A stretch of 64,000 bases of DNA, taken from assembly GCA_000092065.1 (NCBI GenBank), contig CP000600.1, one strand, 5' to 3'. The position numbers were made by a program, and so were the translations under genes. Each line of letters begins with the position of its first letter. Position 1 is the stretch's first letter. This DNA is from Ostreococcus lucimarinus. Its lineage: Eukaryota. The notes below the pieces were generated by a model. That model saw nothing but the letters and a program-made list of their open reading frames with translations. It had not been told where the DNA came from and ran no database searches. Positions 8,761 to 24,668 of the stretch are shown in pieces.

Positions 8761-10458
8761 ATGGGATTCACGGAGGGTTTTGAGATGCCGACGGTGGTGA
8801 TGGACGCGACGGCGCGGTCGTTCGAGGCGCTGGCGCCGAGGATCGACGCGGAGAGCGGGGTGACGCCGCTGAGCTTTGTGAAGCGCGCGGTGGAGCTGGC
8901 GCAGGACGCGATGGGATTGCTGAACGGTGAACGGCAGGAGACGGCGCTGCCGACGGGGGAGGTGGTGAGGGCGCTGGAGGATCCGGTGTATTTCGTGGAG
9001 AACATCGCGAACACGATATCGAGGGAGGCGGAGGCGGGGGCGATCATCGACGACCAGGAGTGGACCAAGGTGCTGAAATCCGTCGACGTCGACATCGGGT
9101 TGTTGCTCGCGTCTGTGGTGCTCATCGTGCCGCTGTTCAATCGCTTGAAGGTGAGCCCGGTTTTAGGGTTTTTGGGGATCGGTTTGGTGCTCAATCGCGC
9201 GGGATTGTTCATCGAGAATCAAGAGGTGGATCAGTTTTGCGAGCTCGGGATTCAGTTTTTGCTGTTTGAGATGGGTTTGGAGTTGTCGTCGAAGAAATTG
9301 AGCGGTTTGGCCAAGTACGCGTTCGGTCTCGGGCTCACGCAAGTGCTGTTCGTGAACTTGGCTTTCGCTTCCGCGCTCTTACCCGCGGGTGAGGCGCTCG
9401 GGACGAAGGTTTTGGAGTTTATCCAGCCCGGAAACGACGAAATGTTGCAAGTGAGCTCGGTTTTGGAAGCCGTCGTCATCGGTTTCGCGCTGTCGCTCTC
9501 GTCCTCGGCGTTCGGTTTGCAGCTCCTGGCCGATCGTAAGATGTTGACCACGAAATTCGGCACCGCGAGCCTGGGAGTGCTGCTGTTCCAGGATTTGGCG
9601 GTCGTGCCGTTCATCATCTTGTTGCCGGTGTTGCAGTCGTTCAAGAGCGGCGGCGCCGACGGCGGCGTCGACGTTCCCATCCTCGCCGCGGGTGGTGCGA
9701 CGTCTTTCCTCGATCTCGGGGTCTTAGCGTTCGGTGGTCGACAACTCACTCTGCTCGGCTTCCGCGCCATCTGCAGAGAAAATTGTACGAACGACGTCTT
9801 CGTCGCCATGTCGCTGTTGGTGCTCTTTGGATTTAGCTTCGCCACGAGCGCGATTGGATTTTCCGATTCTTTGGGCGCGTTTCTCGCGGGGATCATCCTC
9901 GCCGATACGCCGTACTCGCACACAATCATTCGCGAGCTTCAAGCGTTCAAAGGTTTATTCTTATCTTTGTTCTTTGTCACCATCGGTACCACGATTGACT
10001 TTCCGCTATTCCTCGACCTTTGGCCGATCGCGCTCGCCATGACGCTTACGCTGATGGCGAGCAAGACGGCCGTCATCACCGCTCTCGGTCCAGCGGTCGG
10101 TTTAACCTGGCGCGAAGCACTCGTCGCGGGGGCTTTTCTGTGTCAAGGCGGCGAATTCGCTTTCGTGATTTTCGGTCAAGCCACCTCTGGGTCGACGGGT
10201 TCGCTCTTCCCGATGGGATTGGACGAGCTTTTGGTCATCGTCGTCATCTTGTCCATGGCGCTCACGCCGTTGGCCGTCGACGCGGCGTTGGCCATCGCAG
10301 GTGCAGATTTTATGACGCCTGAGGCGACGGAGGACGAAGACGCGATCGACGTCGCGATTCAAGTCGAGGGGAACATGGAAGCGCTCGACATTGCGCGCAT
10401 GGGGAGCGATCGCATGGGCCAGTCGGTGGACGAGAGCGCGGACGGGGACAAGGTTTAA
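8761..10458 (+). CDS. KEA: K+ efflux antiporter (KEA), CPA2 family Na+/H+-exchanger domain. An alternative start at 8512 would add an R/A-rich putative transit peptide.
   Basis: TM region 'LLASVVLIVPLFNRLKVSPVLGFLGIGLVLNRAGL...LGIQFLLFEMGLELS' is typical of KefB/KefC/KEA. 12-13 TM helices and no C-terminal KTN domain (KEA4-6-like). Confidence 0.8.
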   Translation: MGFTEGFEMPTVVMDATARSFEALAPRIDAESGVTPLSFVKRAVELAQDAMGLLNGERQETALPTGEVVRALEDPVYFVENIANTISREAEAGAIIDDQEWTKVLKSVDVDIGLLLASVVLIVPLFNRLKVSPVLGFLGIGLVLNRAGLFIENQEVDQFCELGIQFLLFEMGLELSSKKLSGLAKYAFGLGLTQVLFVNLAFASALLPAGEALGTKVLEFIQPGNDEMLQVSSVLEAVVIGFALSLSSSAFGLQLLADRKMLTTKFGTASLGVLLFQDLAVVPFIILLPVLQSFKSGGADGGVDVPILAAGGATSFLDLGVLAFGGRQLTLLGFRAICRENCTNDVFVAMSLLVLFGFSFATSAIGFSDSLGAFLAGIILADTPYSHTIIRELQAFKGLFLSLFFVTIGTTIDFPLFLDLWPIALAMTLTLMASKTAVITALGPAVGLTWREALVAGAFLCQGGEFAFVIFGQATSGSTGSLFPMGLDELLVIVVILSMALTPLAVDAALAIAGADFMTPEATEDEDAIDVAIQVEGNMEALDIARMGSDRMGQSVDESADGDKV

Positions 10459-10559
10459 ATTATTCATCATCAAACGTAACTTCATGTTGTAGATTAGGAT
10501 ATTATAGAGAAAGTTCGTACAAGTGGTTAATACAATACAAACGGCATAATTCGACAACG

Positions 10560-11570
10560 CTACGCGCTCTCCGATTCCATGGACGAATTTTGCGCCGCGT
10601 AATCGAGGGTCGAGTTTTCCAGAGACGCCTCCATCTCCGCGATCTCGCGCTCGAGTTTTTCAACCTCCTCTGGAGATAAGTTACCAAGATCGCTCGACGC
10701 ATCGGTGGACTCGTCGCCGTCGTCCTCGTCGCCGTCGCTCGTCCGGATGAACGCGTGCAAGTCTCTGTTTTCGCGCTGCAACCGTTTGTTCTCGTGCGTC
10801 AGGGAAGACTTTTCACTCATCAACGCCTCCACCTGCGCGCGAAGCTGATCGACGAGCGCCACCATCTCCGGACTCGCTTTCGCCTCGCGCGCGACTTGTC
10901 GTTTCTGAAGAGCCAAGTTTTGACGCTTCAATTCCTCCGCGAGGCGCGTCGTCTCCCGCTCGCGCGCCTTCGCCGCGGCGACCTCTCGCCGCAACGCCTC
11001 CATCTCCAACGCGCTCGAATCGTCGTCCCGCGTCCCGAACGTCATCGCTCGCGGCGTTACGGGTACGTTTTCTTTCCCCGTCGGCGCTCTCGCGTTCGTC
11101 GTCGTAAACTTCGTTCTCGTCCATCCCTCGTCGTCGTCCTTCTTCCCGTCGTTCGCGTCCCACGAATCCGCCGCGCGGTCGAACACCTCCCCCAGATAAC
11201 TCGCCCCTCGCGTCAGCGCCGACACCGCCGCCGACGTCGCCCCGATCGATTTCACGATCATCGCGTCGATCGCGTCGTCCACCGCGCCCAGCGCGACCTC
11301 CGGCGTCGCCGTCGCGCCTCCGCGGCTTCGCGTCTTGCTCGGCGACCCGTCGTCGCGCGCGCGTCGCGTCTTCCCTCTCGCCCCGCCCCACGCGCTGTCC
11401 AGCGCCGCGCGCTGGAGCGCGTCGCCGTCGCGGCGTTTCTCACGCGTCGTCGTCCGCGACGCGAACCATCCGTCGTCGTCGTCGTCGCGTCGCGTCGTCG
11501 GCGTGCGATGCGTCGTTCGGCGTTCGTACCCCTCCGGCGTCATCATCGCGCTCGCGCCGCCTCGTCGCAT
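10560..11570 (-). CDS. Coiled-coil protein (hypothetical). Only the C-terminal ~335 aa of ORF 10560..12200 is proposed as real.
   Basis: C-terminal heptad coiled coil 'LEMEALRREVAAAKARERETTRLAEELKRQNLALQKRQVAREAKASPEMVALVDQLRAQVEALMSEKSSLTHENKRLQRENRDLHAF'. The first ~140 aa of the ORF is antisense to the Kazal gene at 11779..12249 and is discarded. Confidence 0.4.
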   Translation of the reverse strand: MRRGGASAMMTPEGYERRTTHRTPTTRRDDDDDGWFASRTTTREKRRDGDALQRAALDSAWGGARGKTRRARDDGSPSKTRSRGGATATPEVALGAVDDAIDAMIVKSIGATSAAVSALTRGASYLGEVFDRAADSWDANDGKKDDDEGWTRTKFTTTNARAPTGKENVPVTPRAMTFGTRDDDSSALEMEALRREVAAAKARERETTRLAEELKRQNLALQKRQVAREAKASPEMVALVDQLRAQVEALMSEKSSLTHENKRLQRENRDLHAFIRTSDGDEDDGDESTDASSDLGNLSPEEVEKLEREIAEMEASLENSTLDYAAQNSSMESESA

Positions 11571-11778
11571 CGCTTTCGGGGCTCGCGTTCGGCGCGCGCT
11601 TTCGGCTCGATCGCGCGGTTCGTCCTCGCGCGCTTCCCGCGCGTCGCGCGCGCGCGTCGCGATGCGTCGCCGCGCGCGCGCGTCGACGGACGTTGACGGG
11701 TGACGTTTCAAACACGGATCTCGAGATACGAAACGTCGTTCGTTCGTCGGGACGTCGACGCGAGAGGCGGACGCGTCG

Positions 11779-12249
11779 ATGTCGACGTCGACGGCGCTGA
11801 AACTGCTGGCGCTGCTGCTCGCGAGCGTCGCGCGCGACGCGCGGAGCGCGCGCGCGACGCCGGCGCCGGTGCGCGCGCTGGCGCCGATGGCGGTGGCGGC
11901 GGGGGCGGGAGACGGCGTCGCGAACGCGCTGGACGCGTGCCGGGCGCGGTGCGGCGACGAGGCGTTCGCGCCGGTGTGCGCGGCGAACGGGGCGGCGACG
12001 TACGCGAATAAATGTTGGGCGAACTGTGCGTTCGCGAGCGGACTGCTCGGGAGCGGCGCGCGCGTGAATTTCGTGGTGGACGGCGCGTGCGCGAATCCGA
12101 CGCGGTTTCGAAATCCCTCGTTCGCGTGCGCGACGGCGTGCGCGCAGGTGTACGAACCCGTGTGCGGCGAGAACGGGGTTTCGTACTCGAACGGGTGCAT
12201 CGCGGAGTGTTCAGGCGTGAGATACGTGCGCGGGTCGTGTCACGCGTGA
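11779..12249 (+). CDS. Secreted protein with two Kazal-type serine-protease-inhibitor domains.
   Basis: Signal peptide 'MSTSTALKLLALLLASVA'. Kazal 1 'CRARCGDEAFAPVCAANGATYANKCWANCA'. Kazal 2 'CATACAQVYEPVCGENGVSYSNGCIAEC' carries the (E)PVCGxNGxTYxNxCxxxC signature. Confidence 0.65.
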   Translation: MSTSTALKLLALLLASVARDARSARATPAPVRALAPMAVAAGAGDGVANALDACRARCGDEAFAPVCAANGAATYANKCWANCAFASGLLGSGARVNFVVDGACANPTRFRNPSFACATACAQVYEPVCGENGVSYSNGCIAECSGVRYVRGSCHA

Positions 12250-12312
12250 GCGCGGGCGCGATGACTTTTGTGATTACGAGGCGTTCGCGTTTACGAGGTC
12301 TCGAGGCGGACG

Positions 12313-13377
12313 CTACGGCTTAAACCGCCACGTCTTGACCGTTCCGTCGTCCGAGGCGGACATCAGGAGGGATGAATCGTGCGGAGACCACTGGACGTCG
12401 TTCACGTCGTCGTCGTGCGCGTTTTCCACGGTCACTATCTCTCGCCAAGTTCCATCAATCTCGGCGTACAGGCGAATGGAATTATCGCCCCCCCCCGCGG
12501 CGACGACGCCGTTCTTCCCCCACGAGCAGCTCAGCACCGCGCGATCGTGCCCGCACGCGAACCGCGCGCCGAACTCTAACTCCGTGTCACAAAACCCACG
12601 CCCGTTCCACACGATCAGCGCCCCATCGCCGCCGCACGTGACGCATCTCGTCCCCCGCGATCCGTCGTCCAGCGCTCGCGGCTCAAAGCTCGCGCACCAA
12701 ACCGTCCCCTCGTGTCCCTCCCCGTGCGCGCCGTCTTCCCCCCCCAGCACCTGCGCGCACGACCAGTCGTCCCCATCCGCGTCCTCTCTCCACACTCGCA
12801 CGCTCTCGTCGTAACTCACGCTCACCAGCACGTCCTCCGTCGGATGCCACGTCACTCGCTTGACGTCGCCGCCGTGTCCGTGCAGCGCCGCCGCGCACTC
12901 GAACTCCTCATCTCCGTACCGCTCCCACACCCACACCGTCCGATCGCGTCCGCACGTCGCCAGCAACGATCCCGACCGCGACCACGCGCACGATTTCACC
13001 TCGCTCTCGTGTCCCTCGACCGCGCACGCGCGCGTCCACCGCTCGTCGTCGCCGTCGCCGCCGCCGTCGCCGCCGCCGTCGCCGTCCTCGCCCCGTCCCT
13101 CGCGTCGGTGCACCGTCGTCGCGCCGTCGAACGACGCGACGGCGACGAGGCGTCCGCACGGCGACACCGCGCACGCGCGCGCCGCGCGGTCGCACTTTTC
13201 GAGCGTCTCGACGACGCGCCAGTTTCGACGCGTCGACGCGTCGGCGCGCACGCGCGCCGTCGCGCCCGAGGATTCGCACGCGAACGCGACGCCGGCGCGC
13301 GAGGGGTCGTGCGCGACCGCCCAGACCGCGCGCGGCCGGCGCAGGACGACGGCGTCGGCGTCCAGCGCGGGCGCCAT
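12313..13377 (-). CDS. CIAO1: CIAO1 (cytosolic iron-sulfur assembly component 1), WD40 protein.
   Basis: Seven WD repeats. 'GHESEVKSCAWSRSGSLLATCGRDRTVWVWE' and 'AHDDDVNDVQWSPHDSSLLMSASDDGTVKTWRF' match the CIAO1/Cia1 family. Start taken at 'MAPALDADAVVLRR...'. The upstream part of ORF 12313..13962 is arginine-rich artefact. Confidence 0.85.
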   Translation of the reverse strand: MAPALDADAVVLRRPRAVWAVAHDPSRAGVAFACESSGATARVRADASTRRNWRVVETLEKCDRAARACAVSPCGRLVAVASFDGATTVHRREGRGEDGDGGGDGGGDGDDERWTRACAVEGHESEVKSCAWSRSGSLLATCGRDRTVWVWERYGDEEFECAAALHGHGGDVKRVTWHPTEDVLVSVSYDESVRVWREDADGDDWSCAQVLGGEDGAHGEGHEGTVWCASFEPRALDDGSRGTRCVTCGGDGALIVWNGRGFCDTELEFGARFACGHDRAVLSCSWGKNGVVAAGGGDNSIRLYAEIDGTWREIVTVENAHDDDVNDVQWSPHDSSLLMSASDDGTVKTWRFKP

Positions 13378-13575
13378 GCCGAGAGATCGACGCGCGACGA
13401 CGAGTGCGGCACATCGCGACGCCGAGACGGCGTCGACGCGACGCGCGAGACGACGACGACGCGCGCGAAACATTCGCCCTCGTCGCGACGCGCACAGAGC
13501 GACGGACGCGCGCGGAGCGACGCGCACAGAGCGCGCGAGAGATTTGAATTTTAAATCATCGCGCAGCGCGGAAAG

Positions 13576-14346
13576 ATGACGGCGACGACGACGCCGGACG
13601 ACGCGATGGAGGACGCGCGTCCGTCGCGCGACCGCGGCGCGCGCGTCGCGGAGTTGCGGGCGTCGTTCGAGAGCGCGCTGCGGGCGTGCGCGGAGCCGCC
13701 GACGGCGCAGGTGGGTGGACGCGAGACGACGCGGTGGTTCCCCCGCGCGCGACGCGCGCGCGGATGAGGAAAGGAGACGCGCGAGGCGTCGCGAAGGCGC
13801 GAGGCGAGCGAGCGACGAGAGACGATGGAGGACTGACTCGCGATGCGATCGATCGGCGCGTCGGCGCAGGAATTCATACGCGCGTTTCCGGGGTTGAATC
13901 CGGCGCACCACGCGGCGCTGTACGACGCGTACGCCGAGGCGTTGAGATCCGTGGGGCGACACGCCGAGGAGGAATTCGAGGCGATCTGCGAGGAAGAGAG
14001 CGTGGAGGCGCGATTGAATGCGATCGATGCGCTGTGCGCGGAGCGAGGGGTGATGGATCTGGACGTCGCGTCGAACGCGGCGCGCGTGGCGTACTCGGGA
14101 AAGTCGCCGGATGAGGTGGCGCGGAACACGCGCGCCGAGGCGAAGCGAAAGGAGGCGGAGACGCTGCGCGAGGAGGCGGCGGCGCTCGAGATGGCGGCGC
14201 AGGAGACGATCGCCGCGTTAGAGGCGAAGCGCGAGGCGGTTCGGGCGGCGGCGACCGGGCTGAAGACTGGCACGCAGGGCGGCGACGTCGTGCAAGACGC
14301 GTCGACGCGGTGGGCGGCGCGAGCGCCGCAGCCGCTCAAGTCTTGA
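13576..14346 (+). CDS. Hypothetical small protein; candidate two-exon model join(13576..13710, 13870..14346).
   Basis: Same-frame ORFs 13576..13767 and 13843..14346 are separated by a GTGGGT donor at 13711, a 'ggactgac' branch point and a cgcag acceptor at ~13869. Alternative: single-exon ORF 13843..14346 only. Confidence 0.3.
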
Positions 14347-14414
14347 TCTAGTTTCAAATATTGTAACAATGTTTCCTACCTCCCTATCACTATCGCTAAT
14401 ACCGACTGATGCGG

Positions 14415-15509
14415 CTACAGCTTCGAGTCGCTCGCCGCGGCGAAGTACGAAGTCGCGTCGACGGCGGGCATCCATCCTCCGGGCGGCGGCGCGCCGACTT
14501 TGTCGATCAACACCGCCTCGACGCCGCGTCGGAAATCCGGGGCGTGGATGAACTTGACGATGAGAGCGTTGTCCATCGCTAAAACCCACTCCAGCGATTT
14601 CCCTCGCGATCGCCGCATGAGCTCTAAGGACACGCCCAGGCTCGTCGGCGACGCCTTGGCGACGCTCTCTCGGCACTCCGCGAAAAACGCTCGCTCCGCC
14701 TCGCTCTCCGCCGCGTCTTCTTTTCGCGCGATCTCGCGCGTGATATCATCCAGCGACATGGCGTCGTTCCCGAACACCTCGTCGATCATCGCGCGCCCGC
14801 GTTCGCTGGTCAAGTACGACGTCGCCGCCGGTTCGTCCCGCTCGCCGCTCGCCGCCGCGCGCGCTAAATCCTCCACGCTCGCCCCGCGCTCGAGCGCGTT
14901 CACGCGTTTCTCCGTCTCTCGATCCCAAACCTCCATCGTGACGTAATGCGTGGCGAGTCCGATGCGCTTGCAATCGATCCCTCGAACGCGCGCCCCCGTG
15001 AGGCTCAGGCACGTCGCGTACGCGTGCCCGCACAGCGCGTTCAAAAACCATCCCGCGCCCACGTCCGGGTACAGCCCGATCGCGCACTCCGGCATCGCAA
15101 ACACCGTCGCATCCGTCGCGACGCGCACGGGACAATAACAACTCAACCCCGCGCCGCCGCCCATGACGACGCCGTTCCACACGCACGCGCTCGGCTTGCG
15201 CAGCGCGTGCAGCGCCGCGTTCAGCGCGAACTCCCGATCGAAGAACGCGATCGCGCCGTCGACGTCGCCGCGAACCACCATTTCGCGAACGGCGCGAACG
15301 TCGCCGCCGGCGCAGAACGCGCGCGAGCCGTGGCCTCGCAGGAGGTAGCACGCCGCGGCGTCGTCGCGCTCGGCGCGCTGGAACAATTCGTGCAAACGCT
15401 CCACGGCGTCGCGGTTGAGGGCGTTGAGCGCGCGCGGGCGATCGATGGTGACGTGCACGACGTTGTTTACGAGCGTCGCGCGCACGGGCTCGGGCTCGGG
15501 CTCGGACAT
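14415..15509 (-). CDS. HIBCH: 3-hydroxyisobutyryl-CoA hydrolase (enoyl-CoA hydratase/crotonase superfamily).
   Basis: 'AFCAGGDVRA', 'NGVVMGGGAGLS', 'FAMPECAIGLYPDVGAGWFL' and the C-terminal 'SPTSLGVSLELMRR' match HIBCH (CHY1) signatures. Confidence 0.85.
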   Translation of the reverse strand: MSEPEPEPVRATLVNNVVHVTIDRPRALNALNRDAVERLHELFQRAERDDAAACYLLRGHGSRAFCAGGDVRAVREMVVRGDVDGAIAFFDREFALNAALHALRKPSACVWNGVVMGGGAGLSCYCPVRVATDATVFAMPECAIGLYPDVGAGWFLNALCGHAYATCLSLTGARVRGIDCKRIGLATHYVTMEVWDRETEKRVNALERGASVEDLARAAASGERDEPAATSYLTSERGRAMIDEVFGNDAMSLDDITREIARKEDAAESEAERAFFAECRESVAKASPTSLGVSLELMRRSRGKSLEWVLAMDNALIVKFIHAPDFRRGVEAVLIDKVGAPPPGGWMPAVDATSYFAAASDSKL

Positions 15510-15615: not shown

Positions 15616-18600
15616 TTAAAAGGCGCGCTTGGGGCGCTTCCTCAAGATGCGAGCGACGGGAGGCCGTGGACTCGGTTCGTCGCCGTCGCTGTCGCCGTCG
15701 GTGTCGAAATCAAAGGTGTGCTTGAGGGGAGAAAAGTCGGCGCGATCGCGCTCGGCTTTGGCGCGCTTCTTGGCGTCAGACGTGGGGATCTTGGACGTGA
15801 GCGCGATGAGCGGACCGGGAACTGGATTCACCGCCAAAGTGAGCGGATCGTTTGCGGCCACGCTCGGCATGGCGTGGAGCTCGTTCGCGCACATCATCTT
15901 GCGCTTCTTCGTTCGCTCGCCAGCGTTCGTCGTCGTCGTCGTCGTCGTCGCGGTGAGGTCTGATTTGGACGAGGAATGCGGCGGTGGGTTTTCCACGGGC
16001 GATGCGTCGTGCGTCGTGGGAGAAGGTTCCGATGAAGTGCGCTCGGCGGTTTCTTCCGTTTGCACGGCGGTTTCAGGCTCGTCAAAATCGTACGTTTGCA
16101 CGGCAATTTCGCGCCGCGGAGACTCACCAAAGTCGTCCGTCTGCACGGCGATTTCGCGCCGCGGCGATGCCGATACCGTTGGCTGTTTCGCTGACGCAGT
16201 GTATTCCGTCTGTGTTTGGACATCCTTCATCGGGGTTGAGGACTTCGATTGCGGCGAAGTCGCCTTCTCCATCTGAGCGTTCCCCTTCGTCGACTTGATA
16301 ATCGGTGCCGGACTCTGCACCTCGATTTCGTCCGTATCGACGTCGGGGTCGGCGTCCGGCACCAAGGTACCTTGGATCGATTCCTCTCGGTCATCGATGA
16401 CTGTGGTTTGTTCTTCCTCGCCGACTGTGATTTGTTCTTCTTCCTCGCCGACTGTGGTTTGTTCTTCTTCCTCGCCGACTGTGATTTGTTCTTCTTCCTC
16501 GACGGGTTCGATTTGATCTTCGTCTTCCTCGACGGGTTCGATTTGATCTTCGTCTTCCTCGACGGGTTCGATTTGATCTTCGTCTTCCTCGACGGGGACG
16601 ATTTGTTGCTCCGTCACCTCGATTGACTCTTCTTCATTCGCCTCCATCTCCGGCGCCGCGGGCGCTTCTGCGGGCATGTGTATCTGTAGAGGGAATTCAT
16701 CTAAACCAACATTGATACCATCGTCCGCAGCTTTGATCGCATCGGTAATAGCCGGACTTAAGACGGGCGGTTTCGTCAACTGGAAAGGAAGCGCACCGAT
16801 TTCTGAGAGCGCAATCAGCTTCTTTGCCTTTTCCGCCCTGGAGAGCGGCTCGCGAGCCTCTGAGCCAAGGATGAGACTCGTCACCGTCATGTGTGAATGC
16901 GCGAGTTTCACGTCTGGCGAGATCACAGTGAACATCGAAGGTTTCGCAACGCGTGCTCTAAATTCCGGCATGACTTGTTTCTTCACGTAAGGACTCATAC
17001 ACGTCAAGCATGCTTGCATGGCGTCTTCGCTCGCGATGAGAATGTAGGGCGTATAAAATTTCTCAATTTCTTTCGTCGCCTTTTCGATGATGAGATCATT
17101 CATCGTGCACGCTGTATGGGATATAGCGTTAATCACGTCCGTCATCATCGCCCTGACACCCTCCGGTGGCGGCACTTCAGTGGTCTCGTCCAACGGATGG
17201 AAGGCGCACATCAAACCAGCGGTGACTGACTTGAGTTGTCGATTTATCTCGATTTGAATGTTCTTCGTACATTCGAGCCAAAGACGCGTGGTACTCTCCC
17301 CAGCAACTTTCGCTGAATTCATGTACGCATATCTATGCGCCGGGCTCAACTTGAATTTAGTTAGCGCTAAATTGAAGAGCGCTCGCATCATGGCGCGCTT
17401 CGGATCATCTTCGGGGCCTGCGAGACTCGCAATCTGATTTTTCACCAAAGCGCCAAACATCAATTCGCCAGTACTTTGATCAGAGACGAGAGAGTGACAC
17501 CAAGCAGCATTGACACTCTCACAGACTTGGAATAATAATCCTCGAGGCTTTTGCGGCGTGTTTTTTCCGTTAAAGTTGAAGTAGAAAGTTGCCTCCAAGA
17601 CCTTTCCAAAGTAATCCACCGCCTCGATGATAAATCCACGCACGTCTGCTGGCGTTCGAATGTCATGGATGCGTTCCTCAGGCCTTAAATTTTTCGTCAA
17701 GACCTCACGCACGACTGCCGCGCGACCGTGCTTGATGGCATGAATATCAAGCGGCTCCATGGCTACTTTCATCGAGACCGCGATGACGCGAGTGCAAAAC
17801 TGGTGCGCTAGTTCATACACTCTTCTCGCCGCATAAGCGCCACCTTCGCCTAATCTGAACTCGATATCATCGTAAAATCCACGAAGAGAATCATCAGAAC
17901 ACGTTGGAAGCGCACAAAGCGGTTCGGCGGCGACGCAGAAAGCCTTGAGTACGTCGTGGACTCGTCGCGTCACGCGGCGCATCGCCTTCAACTGTCTTGC
18001 CCGCTTGAGCTCCTCCAGAGTGGCGTTCAAAGAACCATGACCGGTGATACTCTGCACATCAAACTTTTCAGGGTCCAAAACTTTGGCCCAAGACAGACGA
18101 AACTCGAGGAACTTCCAAGCTACCGCAATTACGGCGTTGGCTGTCTGCTTGAGCTCGCGAACACTTCCGGTTTGATCCATCAACATCTTCAGCAACTCGG
18201 CGCGGCGGACCGTGGCTATCTCTACTGTGTTTTCGTTGATGACTCGATCGATCGCCCATTGAATCTCTTCGTCCACTGGCGGGAAATCTTTTGCAAGTTC
18301 TTCCACGCTGACATCTCTACCGAGTTTACGCTTTAACAATGCGCTCGCACGTTTCAAAGTTGTCGCTGTGCTTCCCCAAATACGATCACCTTGAACGGCA
18401 TTTATGAAACGTCTAGTTGCTGGTCGAATCGCCAGTTGCTGCAAAAATCCACTTTTATGAAGCGACCGCACAATATCGCCCGTGACTTCACGCGAGTCGC
18501 CAAGGCAAATAACGGCGGCAGCGTTGCGCAAAGCGGCGACGAGATGCCTGTCTCGAGCGGGATCGGAATCGCCCGCACCGGGCGCATCGATCAGAACTAA

Positions 18601-20313
18601 ACCACGCTTTTGCGGTGGAACTGGGATATCTATCCGGACTTCACGCAGTAACCCCCAACACGACGATGGAATGTGCGTTTGAGTGAACACGGTGTGCTTC
18701 GTCGCTCTCAAAGCGCGCTGAAACGTACGTTCGTCAGTATAATCTATTGGTTCGTCAGGTTTGCCGTTTTTGTTTCTGTCGGTTTTGTACTCGAACTCAA
18801 CGCGCTTGCCTAACCGTTCGATATACTCGGCTGGAATTGCCACGTCGCTCTCGTCCAAGTCAGCGAGCGTCGATATGTTCGGGTCAAGCCCGACCATGGC
18901 GCACGCCACCCTGAGCACCGACGGTAATCCGTAGCCATCGTCTGGAACCGCTTCCCCTTCCTTCGGCTTCGTCCTAAAATCTAAAAGCGTAGTTTCTTCC
19001 AAACCTCGAGCCTTGAGCTCCTTTTTCACGTACGATTCGGCGTAAAAGCCTAAGCCCTTGCGAGCCGATTCGATTGCCCGCGCTTGGCGCACCGCGTACT
19101 GGAGCGCGTGCACGTGTTGCTTGACGACATCCTCGCTAAAGTACACCAAACTCACTCTGAAGGCGTCGGATGTTCTCACAGAAGACGCCACGGACGTCGT
19201 GTCCATGACATCACCCTCTGGGAGCAAAAACGGCGGCGGTCTCGCATTTTTGAGTCTGGGATCGTTCTCCAAAAAATCCTTCAACGTCGTGGGCGGCGGC
19301 GGGAACTTCTTCTTTCGCACCGGAATCTCATACGCCGCGATCGCCGCGTCGTACTTCTGACGCTTCGCTTCCTCGGCCGCTTTCTTCGCCGCCTCCTTAT
19401 CGCGCGCCTCCTGATGCTCCTTGTACAAGACGTAACTCGGCTTGACTTTCTGCCCCTTCTTCTGCGCCTTCTTCGCCGCCTCCTTGAGCTTTTCCTTGCG
19501 AATCGCGTCCGCCTCCGAATCCTTGAACGCATCCCCCCGTATCTCTCTTCCTCGCATGTGTCTCGGCATGTACACCGCCGCGCTCGTGTCTCGATCCAAC
19601 GGCGGCGGCGGCGCGAACGCGCTCGCGTTCGCGTCCAACGCCGCCCCCCCCTCGTCCTCCCAATCGTCCTCCATCGCTCGCGCTTTATCCTCCTCCGCCT
19701 CCTCCGCGCGTTCATCGTGATCTCGCATCTTCGTCAGCGTCAGTTTCCCGTTCGCGCCGCCAGTTCCGACCCTTCCTCGCGCGTCGCCTCGACTCGCCAG
19801 CTCCCGCAGCAGCCCGTTCAGCACGTGACTCTTCCCCACCCCCGACCGCCCCAGCGCCACGACTCGCAGCGGCGCCGACGTCGCGCGTTCGTATTCCTCC
19901 ATCGCCCGCGTCGTCTCCTCCACCAGCCGTCGTCGCGCGCTCTCCGGCACGACGTACGTCGACCCCGGCGCGTCGAGCGTCGCCGCGCGTCCGTGCGACA
20001 GCATCAGCTCCCGCGTCGACCGCAGCGCGTCGTGCAGCGCGCCCGTCTGCGCGTCGAAACAAAAAGCGCGGCGTTTACGGTCAGTCGCGAAGTTCGTCGT
20101 TCCGCGCGCGTCGTCGTTCCGCGCGCGTCGCGACGATTTCATTTCATTTTCGCGCGCTTCGATTCGCGTTCGACGCACCCGCACGACGCGCAGCGCGGCG
20201 TCGACGGCGTCGGCGTCCGTCAGGTCCCCGCACGCGCTCTCCGCGTGCCGCGCGAGCGAGCGCGCGCGGCGCTCGGCGCGCGCGGCGTCGGAATCATCGG
20301 ATTCGTCGCGCAT
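15616..20313 (-). CDS. Large (~1560 aa) dynamin/mitofusin-like P-loop GTPase with an in-frame intron candidate (20047..20178) and C-terminal acidic tandem repeats.
   Basis: G1 'ALGRSGVGKSHVLNGLL' (GxxxxGKS). G3 'LVLIDAPGAGD' (DxPG) lies ~400 aa downstream, so a large lysine/proline-rich insertion sits between them. Long alpha-helical stalk-like region. C-terminal repeats 'VEEDEDQIEP'x3, 'GEEEEQ(T/I)TV'x4, 'SPRREIAVQT'x2. ORF sequence upstream of 20313 is antisense to TTC1 and arginine-rich, so it is rejected. Confidence 0.6.
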   Translation of the reverse strand: MRDESDDSDAARAERRARSLARHAESACGDLTDADAVDAALRVVRVRRTRIEARENEMKSSRRARNDDARGTTNFATDRKRRAFCFDAQTGALHDALRSTRELMLSHGRAATLDAPGSTYVVPESARRRLVEETTRAMEEYERATSAPLRVVALGRSGVGKSHVLNGLLRELASRGDARGRVGTGGANGKLTLTKMRDHDERAEEAEEDKARAMEDDWEDEGGAALDANASAFAPPPPLDRDTSAAVYMPRHMRGREIRGDAFKDSEADAIRKEKLKEAAKKAQKKGQKVKPSYVLYKEHQEARDKEAAKKAAEEAKRQKYDAAIAAYEIPVRKKKFPPPPTTLKDFLENDPRLKNARPPPFLLPEGDVMDTTSVASSVRTSDAFRVSLVYFSEDVVKQHVHALQYAVRQARAIESARKGLGFYAESYVKKELKARGLEETTLLDFRTKPKEGEAVPDDGYGLPSVLRVACAMVGLDPNISTLADLDESDVAIPAEYIERLGKRVEFEYKTDRNKNGKPDEPIDYTDERTFQRALRATKHTVFTQTHIPSSCWGLLREVRIDIPVPPQKRGLVLIDAPGAGDSDPARDRHLVAALRNAAAVICLGDSREVTGDIVRSLHKSGFLQQLAIRPATRRFINAVQGDRIWGSTATTLKRASALLKRKLGRDVSVEELAKDFPPVDEEIQWAIDRVINENTVEIATVRRAELLKMLMDQTGSVRELKQTANAVIAVAWKFLEFRLSWAKVLDPEKFDVQSITGHGSLNATLEELKRARQLKAMRRVTRRVHDVLKAFCVAAEPLCALPTCSDDSLRGFYDDIEFRLGEGGAYAARRVYELAHQFCTRVIAVSMKVAMEPLDIHAIKHGRAAVVREVLTKNLRPEERIHDIRTPADVRGFIIEAVDYFGKVLEATFYFNFNGKNTPQKPRGLLFQVCESVNAAWCHSLVSDQSTGELMFGALVKNQIASLAGPEDDPKRAMMRALFNLALTKFKLSPAHRYAYMNSAKVAGESTTRLWLECTKNIQIEINRQLKSVTAGLMCAFHPLDETTEVPPPEGVRAMMTDVINAISHTACTMNDLIIEKATKEIEKFYTPYILIASEDAMQACLTCMSPYVKKQVMPEFRARVAKPSMFTVISPDVKLAHSHMTVTSLILGSEAREPLSRAEKAKKLIALSEIGALPFQLTKPPVLSPAITDAIKAADDGINVGLDEFPLQIHMPAEAPAAPEMEANEEESIEVTEQQIVPVEEDEDQIEPVEEDEDQIEPVEEDEDQIEPVEEEEQITVGEEEEQTTVGEEEEQITVGEEEQTTVIDDREESIQGTLVPDADPDVDTDEIEVQSPAPIIKSTKGNAQMEKATSPQSKSSTPMKDVQTQTEYTASAKQPTVSASPRREIAVQTDDFGESPRREIAVQTYDFDEPETAVQTEETAERTSSEPSPTTHDASPVENPPPHSSSKSDLTATTTTTTTNAGERTKKRKMMCANELHAMPSVAANDPLTLAVNPVPGPLIALTSKIPTSDAKKRAKAERDRADFSPLKHTFDFDTDGDSDGDEPSPRPPVARILRKRPKRAF
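16055..16180 (-). repeat. Coding tandem repeat: ~42-nt unit x2-3 (SPRREIAVQTxDF).
   Basis: 'gtttgcacggcaatttcgcgccgcgg' repeated at 16094 and 16138, with a partial copy at ~16059. Confidence 0.7.
16399..16590 (-). repeat. Coding tandem repeats: 27-nt unit x4 (EEEEQxTVG) followed by 30-nt unit x3 (VEEDEDQIEP).
   Basis: Near-perfect direct repeats 'ttcttcctcgccgactgtgatttgttc' and 'ctcgacgggttcgatttgatcttcgtcttc' on the + strand, inside the GTPase CDS. Confidence 0.8.
20047..20178 (-). other. Putative 132-nt in-frame, stop-free intron in the GTPase gene.
   Basis: Minus-strand GTGCGT donor directly after '...AALRVVR'. AT-richer island 'gaaaatgaaatgaaatcg'. 'cgactgacc' branch point 33 nt before the acceptor 'ctttttgtttcgacgcgcag'. 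Confidence 0.5.
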
Positions 20314-20334
20314 CGCCGCACAGTGCCGCGCGCG

Positions 20335-21060
20335 ATGGTCGCGCTCGTCGACGCGGACGACGCGCGCGGCGCGACGGACGCGCGCGACGACGACGGCGAC
20401 GCGCGCGACGCGCGCGGCGACGCGCGCGACGCGGCGGCGCGGCGGCGCGATGGGAACGCGGCGTTCGCGCGGGGCGCGTACGCCGAGGCGTCGCGCGCGT
20501 ACACGGACGCGCTGACGCGCGCGCGCGGCGATGGGCGCGGCGACGCGCGCGAGGACGCTTTGGACGCGGGCGAGGACGCGGCGGGCGCGGCGCGCGGCGA
20601 CGGGGACGCGGCGACGTGTCTGGCGAATCGCGCGGCGTGTTGGTTGAAGCTGGAGCGATACGAGGACGCGGCGAGGGATTGCGACGAGGCGATCGCGATC
20701 GATGGGACGTACGCGAAGGCGTACGCGAGACGGGCGCGCGCGAGGGAGGCGCTCGGGGACGAGGAGGGGGCGCTGGAGGATTGGGAGAGGACGCGCGCGT
20801 TGGCGCCGAGGGACGCGACGGCGAGGGACGAGACGAGGCGACTGAAGCCGGTGGTGGAGCGGAAACGGGAAGAGATGAAGAGAGAGATGTTGGATAAGAT
20901 GAAGGATTTGGGGAACTCTTTGCTCGGGAACTTTGGGCTGAGTTTGGATAACTTCAAGGCGGAGAAGGACGCGACGACGGGGAGTTACTCGATTCACTTC
21001 GTCGACGAAAAGAAACGCTCGACGACTGGCGACGAGGACGACGAGGACGACGAGAACTGA
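20335..21060 (+). CDS. TTC1: Tetratricopeptide repeat protein 1 (TTC1) homologue.
   Basis: Three TPRs ('GNAAFARGAYAEASRAYTDAL', 'ANRAACWLKLERYEDAARDCDEAIAIDGTYAKAYARRARAREALGDEEGALEDW'). C-terminal 'DLGNSLLGNFGLSLDNFKAEKDATTGSYSIHFV' matches TTC1 '[32 protein letters not shown]'. Acidic N-terminal region. Confidence 0.75.
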   Translation: MVALVDADDARGATDARDDDGDARDARGDARDAAARRRDGNAAFARGAYAEASRAYTDALTRARGDGRGDAREDALDAGEDAAGAARGDGDAATCLANRAACWLKLERYEDAARDCDEAIAIDGTYAKAYARRARAREALGDEEGALEDWERTRALAPRDATARDETRRLKPVVERKREEMKREMLDKMKDLGNSLLGNFGLSLDNFKAEKDATTGSYSIHFVDEKKRSTTGDEDDEDDEN

Positions 21061-21136
21061 GCTCGCGCGCGCGGTGCGCTCGCTATAGCTATTAAAATTG
21101 TCACACGCGCGCGCTCGAGCGTCGCGAGAGTCTAGT

Positions 21137-21850
21137 CTAATCGCCGTCGCGTTCGAGTCCGCCGCGCAACGCGAGCTGTCGACACCGCTTTTCAAACGCT
21201 TGAATCTGCGACCTCGCGACGTCGTCGAAGACCACGCTCACCGCCGCGGCGTGCATGGGATCTTTAACTTCAAAATCAATCTCGAAATCCACGATGACGC
21301 CCTCGGCGGGTAATCCCGTGACCGGGTCTTCGTCCTCGTCGTCGTCGAGCGGCGAAAATTTCCACGTCGTCGTCATCGACCGAAACAACCCGCTCGACAC
21401 GCTCGTCGCCGTCACGCGCTCCGGTCGCGCGCACGTCACCGCGCTCGTGTACTTCTCGTTGAATAATTTAAACCCAATCTCCAAATCCGCCTCAAAGTAT
21501 TCCTCCCCTCGCGCCAGCGCCTCGCGTTCGCGTTCGCGTCCCCATCGCTCTCGCGGCGTCCGCCTCGCCCCCGCGCAGAACGGCACGAACGCCGCGTAAC
21601 TGTCCACGTCCGCCACCGCGTCGCACAGCGCGTCTCGCGCGATCCCCTTGACGATTCGTCGCGCCGAGAACCGTCGCCGCGCGCCCTCGTCGCCGTCGCC
21701 GTCGCCGTTTCGCCCGTCGCCGTCGTCACCGCGCGTCGCCACCTCCCGCGCGCGTCCGAGCGTCGCGCCGGGCGTCGCGCGGGTCGGCCCCACGGCGCGC
21801 GTCGCGCGCGTCGCCGCCTCCCGCGCGCGCCTCGCGAGCGCGCGCGACAT
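21137..21850 (-). CDS. COQ10: Coenzyme Q-binding protein COQ10 (START/SRPBCC fold) with a mitochondrial presequence.
   Basis: 'LEIGFKLFNEKYTSAVTCARPERVTATSVSSGLFRSMTTTWKFSP' matches COQ10 '[45 protein letters not shown]'. 'FEIDFEVKDPMHAAAVSVVFDDVARSQIQAFEKRC' matches '[35 protein letters not shown]'. Presequence 'MSRALARRAREAATRA'. Confidence 0.8.
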   Translation of the reverse strand: MSRALARRAREAATRATRAVGPTRATPGATLGRAREVATRGDDGDGRNGDGDGDEGARRRFSARRIVKGIARDALCDAVADVDSYAAFVPFCAGARRTPRERWGREREREALARGEEYFEADLEIGFKLFNEKYTSAVTCARPERVTATSVSSGLFRSMTTTWKFSPLDDDEDEDPVTGLPAEGVIVDFEIDFEVKDPMHAAAVSVVFDDVARSQIQAFEKRCRQLALRGGLERDGD

Positions 21851-22035
21851 CGCCGCGCCGCGCTCTGACGCGACGCGCGCGACGCGCGCGTGCGCCGAGT
21901 CCGACCGACCTCTCGTCCGGACTGTTTGCGCATACACCCGCGCGACCGACCGCACGGTTCGCACTGTTTGCCCCGCCGCGATGGGGCATCGCGATCGGGG
22001 CGCGCGCGCGCGATCGCGACACTCCCGCGCGCACG

Positions 22036-23180
22036 ATGTTCACGCTCTCCACCACCCTCGCGCACGCCGCCGTCAAGGCGAACGTCAAGGCGACGCGTAA
22101 ATCGCAATCGCGCCGAGGCGCCGTCAAGGTCGCCGCGCAGGCGCCCGACGCGTCGAGCCGTCGCGAAGCCATGAGTCTCATCGCGGTGCGTCCGAACGCG
22201 ACGACGCGATCGAGCGCGCGATGCGCGCGCCCGCGCGCGACGCGCGACGCGCGGGACGACGCGGGACGACGCGGGACGACGCGCGGAATTATTGTCGAGC
22301 GAACCGGCGCGCGAGGGCGCGGAGAGACGCGCGCGCGACGCGTCGAGGACGCGACGCGCGCGACATCATCCAACGAGATACTGACGATCGCGCGGCGTGC
22401 GGTTTCATCGAACGCAGGGCGCGACGACGCTCGCGATGTCCAAGCCGGCGTTCGCGGCGTACGGTGACTCGGCGAACGTTTTCGGCGGCGTGTCGAACCC
22501 GACCGGTGCGTGCGCGCGCGAGGCGCGAGGCGCGCGCGAGGCGCGCGCGAGGCGCGAGCGATCGTATCGACCCGAGATACGATTCGCGCGTGATCCGGGA
22601 CCGATGGGTCGTGATGTCGTGTGGGTAAACAGTGAGACTGACGAGACGCGCTACTTTCGCGAATGCAGGTTTCGTCCCGTACGCCGGCGACGGCTTCGCG
22701 TTCTTGTTGCCGAGCAAGTACAACCCGAGCAAGGAACGCCCGTTCCCGAACACGGAGTGCTATTTCGAGGATAACTTTGACCAAGTGACGAACATTTCCG
22801 TAATCGCCGAAAAAGCCGAAAAGGGGAGCATCGACGCGTACGGCAAGCCGGAGCAATTCTTGGAAAAGCTTGGGTACTTATTGGGCGTGCAATCGTACGC
22901 CGGGCAAACCCGCTCCGAAGGGGGGTTCGCGGCGAACAAGGTTTCCACCGCCGCCGTGCTCGACGTGTACACGCGCGAAAACAAGGGCAAGACGTACTAC
23001 CAATACGAAATTCTCACGCGCACCGCGGACGGCGACGAAGGCGGACGCCACCAGTTGATCACCGCCACCGTGAGTGATGGGAACTTGTACATCATGAAGC
23101 TTCAATCGGGTGACAAGCGTTGGTTCAAGGGTCAAGAGCGCGACCTTCGCACCGCGATGAACTCGTTCACCGTGGCGTAA
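22036..23180 (+). CDS. psbP: Photosystem II oxygen-evolving enhancer protein 2 (PsbP, 23 kDa) precursor; three exons, join(22036..22185, 22418..22505, 22669..23180).
   Basis: Exon 1 carries a transit peptide plus the Tat motif 'SRREAMSLIA'. Exon 2 'GATTLAMSKPAFA|AYGDSANVFGGVSNPTG' holds the h-region, an AFA cleavage site and the mature N-terminus AYG...NVFG. Exon 3 'FVPYAGDGFAFLLPSKYNPSKE...LTRTADGDEGGRHQLITATVSDGNLYIMKLQSGDKRWFKG...NSFTVA' matches PsbP along its full length. Both introns have GTGCGT donors, CTGAC branch points and CAG acceptors. Phases check out: 0 after exon 1 and 1 after exon 2. The spliced product is 249 aa. Confidence 0.85.
22186..22417 (+). other. psbP intron 1 (232 nt).
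   Basis: GTGCGT donor. Internal (GACGCGGGAC)x3 microrepeat. 'tactgac' branch point 32 nt before the cgcag acceptor. Confidence 0.75.
22506..22668 (+). other. psbP intron 2 (163 nt, phase 1).
   Basis: GTGCGT donor. (GCGCGAGGCGC) repeats. 'gactgac' branch point 26 nt before the tgcag acceptor. Confidence 0.75.
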
Positions 23181-23267
23181 GCGAGCGCGCCGCTCGCCGC
23201 GCCCGCCACACACATATAGTTCCGCGACGTTTTAAACGCGAAGCAACCATAGCACGTGTTATGAAAG

Positions 23268-24668
23268 ATGAACATCACCACACCGCGCCGCGCCGCGCCG
23301 TCGCTTCGCGCGCGCGCGCACCGCCCGCCGCGCCCTGACCGCGCGCTCGCCATGCGCGCGTCCCCGCGCGCGCTCGGAAAGTTGAAACCGCGCGACGTCG
23401 CGCTGCTCGATTCGATCCTCTCTCGCGTGCACGCGTCGATGCCGGCGCGTTCCGAGGCCGCGACGGCGGGCGCGCGCGAAGAGTACGTCGTCGGACTGTC
23501 CGGAGGCGTCGACAGCGCCGTCGCCGCGTGGGCGCTCGAGCGGTGCGGCGCGCGCGCGACGGCGACGCTCATGAGAAACTGGGACGCCCGGGACGAGGAC
23601 GCGGCGACGGATTGCTCGCACAGGGACGACCTGAAGTCGGCGAGAGCGATCGCAGAAAAATTGAATCTGAGATTTATCGAAAGCGATTTCACGAGAGAGT
23701 ACTGGCACGAGGTGTTCGAACCGTACGTCGAGGCGTTCGAGAGCGGGGCGACGCCGAACCCGGATTTGGAGTGTAACCGCCGCGTAAAGTTTGGCGCGTT
23801 GTTGAGACGGGCGATGGAGGATTTGGGAGGGCGGTATCTCGCCACCGGGCACTACGCGAGGATCGATCGAGACGTCGACGAGGGCGCGCCGCCGCGGTTA
23901 CTGCGAGGGATCGATCAGACGAAGGATCAGTCGTACTTTTTGGCGTCGGTGCGCGGCGAGGCGTTGCGAAGCGCGTGCTTTCCGCTCGGCGCGGTGTTCA
24001 AGTCAGAGACGCGCGAGGCGGCGCGGATTCTCGGGTTCGATTGCGCCGATAGACGATCGAGCGCGGGGATCTGTTTCATCGGTCGCAGGCCGTTCGGGGA
24101 GTTTATCGGTGAGTACATCACGCCAAGCGAGGGCGCGTTCGTGGACGCGGAGACGGCGCGTCCGGTGCCGGGCGCGGCGCCGCATCGAGGATTGGCGTCG
24201 TACACCGTCGGACAGCGCGCAAAAATAGGCGGTGCGCCAAAACCTTGGTTTGTCGTCGGGAAGAACGTCGCCGCAAACGTCGTGTACGTCGCAAAAGGTG
24301 CTGAGCACGACGCGTTGTATTCCACTCGCGCCGCGTTGGCGGATGAGTTTTGGATTTCCAATCGACGGCCTACGAGCGACGACGGATCGAGTTCCGTTCG
24401 CCTGCTCGCGAAAACGCGCTACGCCTCGTCACTCACTCCAGTGACGCTATCGGTCGCGAGCGACGACGAGACGTTCACGAAATCGAGGTTTTCTTCCTCG
24501 TTCGTCCCGCGCGTCGAATCGTCGCCGCTCCGCGCGACGTTCGACCGTCCCGAACGCGCCGTCACCCCAGGTCAGGCTTTGGTGCTCTACGACGGCGACG
24601 TGTGCTTGGGCGGTGGCGTCATCGAACACGTCGGCGTAACCGAGTTCGAGGCGCGCGCCGCGTCTTAG
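23268..24668 (+). CDS. MNMA: tRNA-specific 2-thiouridylase MnmA/TRMU (mitochondrial MTU1-type).
   Basis: PP-loop 'VVGLSGGVDSAVAA'. 'ATGHYARI', 'DQTKDQSYFL' and 'AGICFIG' are MnmA/TrmU catalytic motifs. Confidence 0.85.
   Translation: MNITTPRRAAPSLRARAHRPPRPDRALAMRASPRALGKLKPRDVALLDSILSRVHASMPARSEAATAGAREEYVVGLSGGVDSAVAAWALERCGARATATLMRNWDARDEDAATDCSHRDDLKSARAIAEKLNLRFIESDFTREYWHEVFEPYVEAFESGATPNPDLECNRRVKFGALLRRAMEDLGGRYLATGHYARIDRDVDEGAPPRLLRGIDQTKDQSYFLASVRGEALRSACFPLGAVFKSETREAARILGFDCADRRSSAGICFIGRRPFGEFIGEYITPSEGAFVDAETARPVPGAAPHRGLASYTVGQRAKIGGAPKPWFVVGKNVAANVVYVAKGAEHDALYSTRAALADEFWISNRRPTSDDGSSSVRLLAKTRYASSLTPVTLSVASDDETFTKSRFSSSFVPRVESSPLRATFDRPERAVTPGQALVLYDGDVCLGGGVIEHVGVTEFEARAAS

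Follow-up and report, generated by a model that had tools for sequence, protein, structure and literature searches.

Is a protein in which a P-loop and a dynamin-style G3 motif lie several hundred residues apart a genuine member of the dynamin superfamily and, if so, where in the cell might it act? This question is raised by a gene on the minus strand of contig CP000600.1 of Ostreococcus lucimarinus CCE9901 (assembly GCA_000092065.1), within a 64,000-nucleotide (nt) stretch that was analysed as a whole and is referred to here as the window. The initial annotation, made from the letters of the window, had described the product as a giant dynamin/mitofusin-like GTPase and had suggested a role in organelle division. 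Among the GTP-driven machines with which cells remodel their membranes, those of the dynamin superfamily are the main ones, and to our knowledge the catalogue of their eukaryotic subfamilies is usually regarded as complete. The results presented below indicate that the protein is very probably a highly divergent dynamin-superfamily GTPase; the overall explanation that we favor, a divergent dynamin-type GTPase with an enlarged G domain for which nuclear targeting is a guess, is probable in our judgment. Throughout the text, residues are numbered according to the open reading frame (ORF) of the initial annotation, in which Met1 lies at window position 20313 and the annotated initiator methionine is Met104.

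The comparison relies on two sets of homologues. A first homologue search returned 15 orthologue clusters, full-length and colinear, with 48-92% identity, all from marine metagenomes or Ostreococcus genomes; the O. tauri protein OUS46061 / A0A1Y5I9D0 belongs to a 53%-identical cluster. An exhaustive search of 1.84 billion representative proteins with a profile of the conserved core gave 34 matches at E<=1e-3, which, beyond the orthologues and fragments, comprised the distant full-length proteins P0022, P0026 and P0028 (Chlorokybus atmophyticus), the fragment P0037, and P0040 and P0042, which are dynamin-like. Judged by these matches, the family is rare; its distribution rests on this one exhaustive profile search, and two word-indexed searches, with a G-domain profile and with a core block free of low complexity, gave fragments only. 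The protein consists of an N-terminal helix, a G domain of ~500 amino acids (aa), a neck and stalk-like region of ~550 aa and a disordered acidic tail of ~350 aa, in which the following features were recognized:

19828..19851, minus strand: G1 (P-loop) GRSGVGKS, residues 155-162, invariant in the 15 orthologue clusters
19234..19788, minus strand: expansion A, from helix alpha1 to switch I, residues 176-360, delimited by AlphaFold model 2 and composition
19177..19233, minus strand: G2 (switch I) PFLLPEGDVMDTTSVASSV, residues 361-379, invariant or nearly so in the orthologues
18634..19134, minus strand: expansion B, from the beta2/beta3 hairpin to G3, residues 394-560, delimited by AlphaFold and alignments
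18553..18600, minus strand: G3 (switch II) LVLIDAPGAGDSDPAR, residues 572-587, containing LVLIDAPGAGD (572-582)
18385..18408, minus strand: G4-equivalent FINAVQGD, residues 636-643, placed by hhalign ('avqGD' on 'athaD' of P0040)
16669..18366, minus strand: predicted all-helical region, residues ~650-1215, a neck-like helix followed by stalk-like helical bundles
15619..16668, minus strand: disordered acidic C-terminal tail, residues 1216-1565, 24% Asp plus Glu

Both motifs on which the initial annotation was built, GRSGVGKS and LVLIDAPGAGD, are present and lie in regions that are 84-92% conserved. G1 aligns from position 1 of the MMR_HSR1 and Dynamin_N profiles and recurs as GRSGxGKS in P0022 and P0026 and as ARSGMGKS in P0028. 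A switch I motif, PFLLPEGDVMDTT, is highly conserved, is flanked by both expansions and provides a candidate catalytic residue, Thr372; its LLPEGDVMDTT string (363-373) is invariant in the orthologues, retained in P0022 and P0026 and partly retained in P0028. The motif has the dynamin LPxG....T form, and its equivalent in P0040 is LLPHDSGSAVTT. In dynamin-1, switch I of which reads LPRGSGIVT, the Pro-to-Thr spacing equals that of the Ostreococcus motif. Within G3, D576, P578, D584, A586 and R587 are invariant across alignment A3, and of the DAPG residues (576-579), Asp and Pro are found in all relatives and Gly in all except the fragment P0037; hhalign pairs G3 with LRLLDVPGLNDPDPAR of P0040 (DVPG), and G3 matches positions 90-138 of the Dynamin_N profile. 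The G4 position is occupied by VQGD (640-643), the Asp of which is kept in nearly all relatives and is not clearly alignable in P0028. Since VQGD falls on THAD of P0040, and P0042 has the canonical TKLD, G4 appears to have retained its Asp and lost the Asn/Thr-Lys pair; P0022 has TVCD, and TVCD, SICD and IPGD are the forms seen in distant relatives. Variant G4 motifs occur in GBPs and atlastins.

Mean pairwise identity by region was calculated for seven orthologues that are only ~50% identical overall: it was 0.92 for G1, 0.88 for G2, 0.84 for the G3-G4 block, 0.44-0.46 for the expansions, 0.28-0.41 for the stalk and 0.15 for the tail. Identities of 0.84-0.92 in proteins that are otherwise so divergent indicate that the motifs are not due to chance, and the invariance of G1 to G3 argues for an active NTPase. 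An active GTPase is what we consider probable from these motifs.

These motifs raise a further question: does the long segment between G1 and G3 represent one inserted domain, as had been proposed? The reported distance of ~400 aa was correct, as Lys161 and Asp576 are 415 residues apart (211 from Lys161 to Thr372 and 204 from Thr372 to Asp576). The single insertion was not, because the conserved switch I (361-379) stands in the middle of the segment: according to the alignments, the "400-aa insertion" is two expansions, one of ~185 aa between G1 and G2 and one of ~165 aa between G2 and G3, and a single inserted domain finds no support. In the AlphaFold prediction, expansion A adds one strand and one helix, which are followed by a disordered loop, acidic and rich in proline (FAPPPPLD), and then by two antiparallel helices that form a Lys-rich hairpin (residues ~262-327, window 19333-19530; predicted local distance difference test score, pLDDT, 66-88). 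The lysine-rich character and the PPPP motifs noted earlier were recovered, with 13% Lys in residues 176-360 and FPPPPT in addition to FAPPPPLD in the G1-G3 segment. The expansion is ~85 aa long in P0022 and ~110 aa long in Chlorokybus P0028. In P0026 (locus L004, 5945-8962), a Cys-rich stretch, HCCRKRPCRCSDWCSQCNTH, at residues ~165-200, in the G1-to-G2 expansion, replaces the Lys-rich hairpin of Ostreococcus, and expansion A is therefore apparently a swappable module. For expansion B, AlphaFold predicts a long helix followed by a disordered loop of acidic character and a strand-helix-strand unit that is conserved; a conserved block with LRVACAMVGL..., RLGKRVEFEY and CWGLLREVRIDIP is kept out to Chlorokybus. 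Since P0040 and P0042 have 150-160 aa between G2 and G3, expansion B appears to be partly shared with bacterial-type dynamin-like proteins (DLPs). The case illustrates how a G domain can be concealed from profile searches by insertions.

Is this enlarged G domain, then, of the dynamin type? The gathering cut-off of the Pfam model Dynamin_N (PF00350) is 27 bits, and it was passed by the distant relatives P0026 (29.7 bits), P0042 (39.1 bits) and P0040 (59.6 bits). All 15 orthologues match this model below the threshold (best E 2.4e-4), and it is the sole model covering the G3 half. When the family G-domain profile was compared by hhalign with these true Dynamin_N proteins, the probability was 96.6% for P0040 (E 5e-10) and 96.5% for P0042 (E 7e-10), with matches at 32-33% identity that span from the strand before G3 through G4; in this respect, the dynamin-like assignment of the initial annotation stands. 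P0040 matches Campylobacter DLP1, BDLP and IniA in the PDB (5owv, 2j68 and 6j72), and the top PDB sequence match of the family profile is IniA (E 1e-3), via both G1 and G3. Single-protein searches of Pfam, NCBIfam and PDB sequences gave sub-threshold P-loop matches only. No member of the 15 clusters matched Fzo_mitofusin (PF04799), Dynamin_M (PF01031), GED (PF02212) or GBP at E<=10; thus, the earlier view that no named subfamily fits is retained, and its mitofusin-style label, given the lack of both an Fzo_mitofusin match and a transmembrane segment, finds no support.

An additional line of evidence was provided by structure prediction. The first AlphaFold model, built from a 9-sequence alignment, covered core residues 104-1225 and had a poorly predicted G domain (pLDDT 62); a Foldseek search with it placed BDLP, SynDLP and Campylobacter DLP in the top ranks. 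The figures for the structural matches, with 150-230 residues aligned, were as follows: SynDLP, 9.4 and 8.8; Campylobacter DLP1, 7.8; MFN2, 7.5; Mgm1, 7.4; MxB, 7.2; Fzo1, 7.2; OPA1, 6.5; EHD4, 6.2; IniA, 6.0; Dynamin 3, 5.9; and IF2 / EF-G, the first non-dynamin match, 5.5. An alignment of 150-230 residues means that both halves of the G domain take part, so that G1 and G3 share one dynamin-fold match and are not divided between different folds, a possibility that the initial annotation had raised. The models predict an extended dynamin-type G-domain fold followed by a helical neck, or bundle signalling element (BSE), and a stalk or trunk. The long stalk-like region described previously is free of low complexity, is all-helical in AlphaFold and resembles the MxB and Drp1 stalks in structural comparison. 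The order of G domain, helical neck and helical stalk is that of all DLPs (PMC10104851).

Comparison with known systems places the protein at some distance from each of them. Its sequence identity to SynDLP (Synechocystis Slr0869) and to fission-type dynamins with a BSE and stalk (Drp1, Mx) is only 5-14%; relative to these proteins, its G domain is ~200 aa larger (~500 aa, whereas a dynamin G domain has roughly 300 aa) through the two expansions around switch I, its G4 is the degenerate VQGD, it has no Dynamin_M or GED signature, and it ends in an acidic, disordered tail of 350 aa. By sequence, its closest relatives are bacterial DLPs (Nostoc BDLP, Campylobacter DLP1/2, Mycobacterium IniA and LeoA), connected via P0040 and P0042, which share the long G2-to-G3 segment and the 'DxPGxxDxDxAR' form of G3 with the Ostreococcus family; the DUF7605 domain, weakly matched by P0040, was not detected in that family. 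In contrast to the bacterial DLPs, the Ostreococcus gene is a eukaryotic nuclear gene in housekeeping synteny and is not operon-paired, and its product is much longer, with a G1-to-G2 expansion that they lack and with no paddle or hydrophobic tip identified. It differs from mitofusin, Fzo1 and plant FZL in having no transmembrane segments, no Fzo_mitofusin match and not much room for a transit peptide. The gene would thus found a small uncharacterised green-algal subfamily of the dynamin superfamily, outside all named subfamilies. It represents a conserved single-copy superfamily member missed by domain databases, and its combination of features is unusual: the G domain is nearly doubled in size by expansions before and after switch I, G4 is degenerate, a membrane-binding module cannot be recognised and, in many orthologues, the tail bears a zinc finger of the DNA-binding type. 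The database label of A4SBE0 is "predicted protein", with zero Pfam domains at threshold. The literature yielded no mention of A4SBE0 or XP_001422760 and nothing on the family under dynamin with Ostreococcus or Micromonas; the sequence is already public and, as far as could be found, unannotated and apparently undiscussed.

The next question is what directs such a protein to its site of action. The maximum 19-residue Kyte-Doolittle hydropathy is 1.33, and no transmembrane helix is therefore expected; no paddle, PH-like or other recognisable membrane module was identified in the protein. Only ~45 residues, predicted to be helical, precede the first G-domain strand in the annotated protein and the orthologues, which leaves little room for a presequence. 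Hence, targeting would most likely be achieved via the Lys-rich hairpin and the tail, in which the following elements were found:

16489-16608, minus strand: tandem repeat of 30 nt x4 (QIEPVEEDED), detected by Tandem Repeats Finder and a repeat finder
16391-16497, minus strand: tandem repeat of 27 nt x4 (EEEQxTVGE), related to the 30-nt family
16039-16164, minus strand: tandem repeat of 45 nt x2-3 (SPRREIAVQTxDF)
15898-15909, minus strand: KKRK, resembling a nuclear localization signal (NLS)
15757-15771, minus strand: NLS-like KKRAK
15625-15642, minus strand: NLS-like RKRPKR

The three acidic tandem repeats of the initial annotation were thus found again, with units of 30, 27 and 45 nt. Among the orthologues, the conserved motifs of the tail are short only (REIAVQT and FDFDxD). 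The tails of eight clusters (P0008-P0015; alignment A1 columns ~1640-1680) contain a GATA-type finger, C-x2-C-x17/18-C-x2-C (PF00320), which shows the full CxxCG.T..W.KG...LC.AC signature and is the only Pfam domain in the 15 clusters; its Pfam score is 25.4-26.5 bits in P0008 and P0010 (cut-off 26.8), and P0015 has no Pfam match. The contigs of P0008-P0015 have a GC content of 0.57, and an assignment of these clusters to Micromonas or Bathycoccus was rejected. Most orthologues end in a conserved 'W..KFA....SPxKR', which resembles a cyclin-dependent kinase site beside a basic cluster.

Vertebrate NUGGC / SLIP-GC is a nuclear GTPase of the dynamin family. We use it, together with Tetrahymena Drp6, as a functional precedent for nuclear targeting only. 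Drp6 is a dynamin relative located at the nuclear envelope (PMC7946437). Because of the NLS-like clusters in the tail, the GATA finger of the orthologues and these nuclear dynamins, we tentatively guess that the site of action may be nuclear, at the envelope or chromatin, and not in plastid or mitochondrial division, although we would not call this probable. According to the mechanism that can be proposed, GTP would be bound and hydrolysed using Lys161, Thr372 and Asp576, nucleotide-bound G domains would dimerise, and the stalk would mediate self-assembly, all as suggested by the family; GTP turnover would then impose a conformational change on whatever the protein is tethered to. The weakest step is targeting, which would be supplied by the Lys-rich helical hairpin and the tail. 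The complete version, a GTP-driven, self-assembling nuclear dynamin-type machine delivered by the NLS clusters of its tail and, in many orthologues, by a DNA-binding GATA finger, which would act on the nuclear envelope or chromatin of the smallest free-living eukaryotes, with the expansions, hairpin included, replacing a PH domain or paddle as a membrane- or nucleic-acid-binding module, is rather doubtful.

Several observations weigh against the explanation that we favor. Of the profiles by which the initial annotation proposed to judge the protein, Fzo_mitofusin and GBP gave no match, and Dynamin_N remained below the threshold in the window protein (8.1 bits, E 3.5); deletion of both expansions in silico raised the score to 16.9 bits, still below 27. 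Membership in the superfamily is therefore deduced from transitive homology, together with AlphaFold models whose confidence is only moderate (pLDDT 62 and 67.5, with 9-sequence alignments). G4 without the Asn/Thr-Lys pair leaves guanine specificity and activity unsecured. As for nuclear targeting, short basic motifs are common in disordered tails, the finger is just below the Pfam threshold where present, and it is absent from the window protein, as the Ostreococcus-type clusters P0001-P0007 have lost it and keep only 'KKRKMMC', which aligns with its second half, at that place.

Could the facts be explained in another way? The role suggested in the initial annotation, an organelle-remodelling dynamin/mitofusin-like GTPase dividing or fusing the single chloroplast or mitochondrion, would agree with the dynamin-superfamily fold, with the presence of mitofusin, Fzo1, Mgm1 and OPA1 among the structural matches, with bacterial-type DLPs as nearest sequence relatives and cyanobacterial SynDLP as best structural match, and with the restriction to green algae, which would suit a plastid-linked function. 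We nevertheless regard it as distinctly unlikely: a transmembrane or strongly hydrophobic segment to serve as an anchor is lacking, the ~45 predicted-helical residues ahead of the G domain are few, Fzo_mitofusin, Dynamin_M and GED are unmatched at E<=10, the tail has NLS-like motifs and, in orthologues, the GATA finger, and no FZL, mitofusin or DRP5B-type proteins were among those retrieved by the exhaustive profile search. Moreover, canonical division dynamins are presumably already encoded by Ostreococcus. An unlikely explanation too, but one that deserves somewhat more weight, is a cytoplasmic DLP of membrane trafficking, the endoplasmic reticulum or cytokinesis, bound peripherally by the Lys-rich hairpin, with the basic tail motifs being incidental. 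The resemblance of the stalk to those of Drp1 and Mx, the conserved helical hairpin, the housekeeping-like conservation of a single-copy syntenic gene and the fact that the majority of characterised DLPs work on membranes (PMC10104851) are all in its favor; however, no membrane-interaction domain is recognisable, distant relatives lack the hairpin or have another sequence in its place (~85 aa in P0022, Cys-rich in P0026), and the finger of the orthologues is hard to square with a purely cytoplasmic role.

It is highly improbable that the protein is a large GTPase of antiviral or immune function, comparable to Mx, GBP, IRG or bacterial DynA and Eleos LeoA/LeoBC and directed against the prasinoviruses of these algae. 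An MxB-like stalk, a fast-evolving stalk and tail (the O. tauri-type orthologue is only 53% identical) and weak matches of distant relatives to LeoA/LeoBC models (P0040, 1.6e-7; P0042, 1e-5; P0026, 2e-5) point in this direction, but the Leo matches are generic G-domain matches, PADLOC defence models give the window protein no match, its G domain is under strong purifying selection, and the gene, present once in a conserved syntenic position, shows no expansion into paralogues. Least credible of all is that the protein is some generic P-loop NTPase of the STAND, AAA or ABC-like kind and has the downstream DxxG by coincidence. It is true that the P-loop region alone matches AAA_16, nSTAND and RsgA equally weakly and that Dynamin_N is sub-threshold even without the inserts; however, those matches span the P-loop only (~25-100 residues), whereas the G3-to-G4 block matches only Dynamin_N-bearing proteins (96.5% in hhalign), and switch I has the dynamin LPxG....T form. 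If the nuclear guess attached to the divergent dynamin-type GTPase is true, the gene would allow the coupling of a dynamin-like protein to DNA or to the nuclear envelope to be studied in a tractable system, and O. tauri is transformable (PMC6562926); if it is wrong, the entry A4SBE0 and those of its relatives, O. tauri A0A1Y5I9D0 among them, can still be relabelled as divergent dynamin-like GTPases.

One more issue is the extent of the gene, which is real and consists of a single exon. Two intervals have to be distinguished:

15616..20004, minus strand: annotated coding sequence (RefSeq), single exon, 1462 aa from Met104 to the stop codon at 15616-15618
20005..20313, minus strand: N-terminal extension of the initial annotation, 103 codons, absent from the RefSeq model and the orthologues

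The minus-strand ORF ends at 15616, is uninterrupted upstream as far as 21195 and would encode 1565 residues if begun at 20313. The translation of 15619-20004 is identical to XP_001422760.1 / ABP01077.1 / UniProt A4SBE0, and no entry for the version starting at 20313 was found in the protein collection searched. Models with an intron or with two separate genes, both considered in the initial annotation, were excluded: the annotated protein is colinear with the unbroken ORF, so that no intron is needed, and the orthologues are colinear as well. The start at 20313 lay ~100 codons too far upstream. The true start is almost certainly Met104 at 20004, because the RefSeq protein is identical from this point, the orthologues start at the Met104 equivalent in the alignment, the ATG at 20313 is only 22 nt from the ATG at 20335 of the divergent TPR gene, and at the orthologous locus L001 there is a 305-nt gap where the 20005..20313 extension would be. 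The latter interval is probably a 5' untranslated region or a shared divergent promoter and not coding. Antisense ORFs run through real genes here: on the minus strand, 20005-21195 crosses the divergent TPR gene, and on the plus strand, the ORF at 19084-21060 contains the TPR gene (true start 20335) and reaches back to 19084 within the GTPase gene. Such long antisense ORFs are an artefact of GC-rich composition, which misled the choice of the start codon. In the 330-nt intergenic region between the GTPase and TPR genes, a perfect 17-nt tandem repeat, TCGTCGTTCCGCGCGCG, occurs at 20094-20130 (x2.2) beside short patches rich in A/T and may serve both genes as a common promoter element.

The neighbouring genes were compared at four loci, with the divergent TPR gene located upstream and enoyl-CoA hydratase, Nnf1, WD40 and Kazal genes downstream; such identical neighbours indicate a single-copy, vertically inherited orthologue. 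In the window, the neighbours at 12313-15509 and 20335-24668 are housekeeping genes (WD40, enoyl-CoA hydratase of the ECH_2 type, TPR, COQ10-like Polyketide_cyc and an MnmA-like tRNA methyltransferase), and their order is kept in the related metagenomic loci L001, L005 and L006.

Base composition differs between the gene and its surroundings, with a GC content of 0.49-0.56 in the gene body vs 0.65-0.78 in the flanks. Along the coding sequence, GC at third codon positions (GC3) is 0.81-0.83 over the first 300 codons and has dropped to 0.42-0.6 in codons 500-1300; the L001 orthologue (8001-12362, 54% identical) has a GC content of 0.62-0.65 all along, with no dip. Horizontal transfer was considered as the source of the low GC content and rejected as unlikely, since conserved synteny and vertical conservation of the gene speak against it and since GC3 declines from 5' to 3'. 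Elsewhere in the window, NPC1/Patched-like, MMS19, GT2, PRP6-like, HMG-box and EMP70 genes were found.

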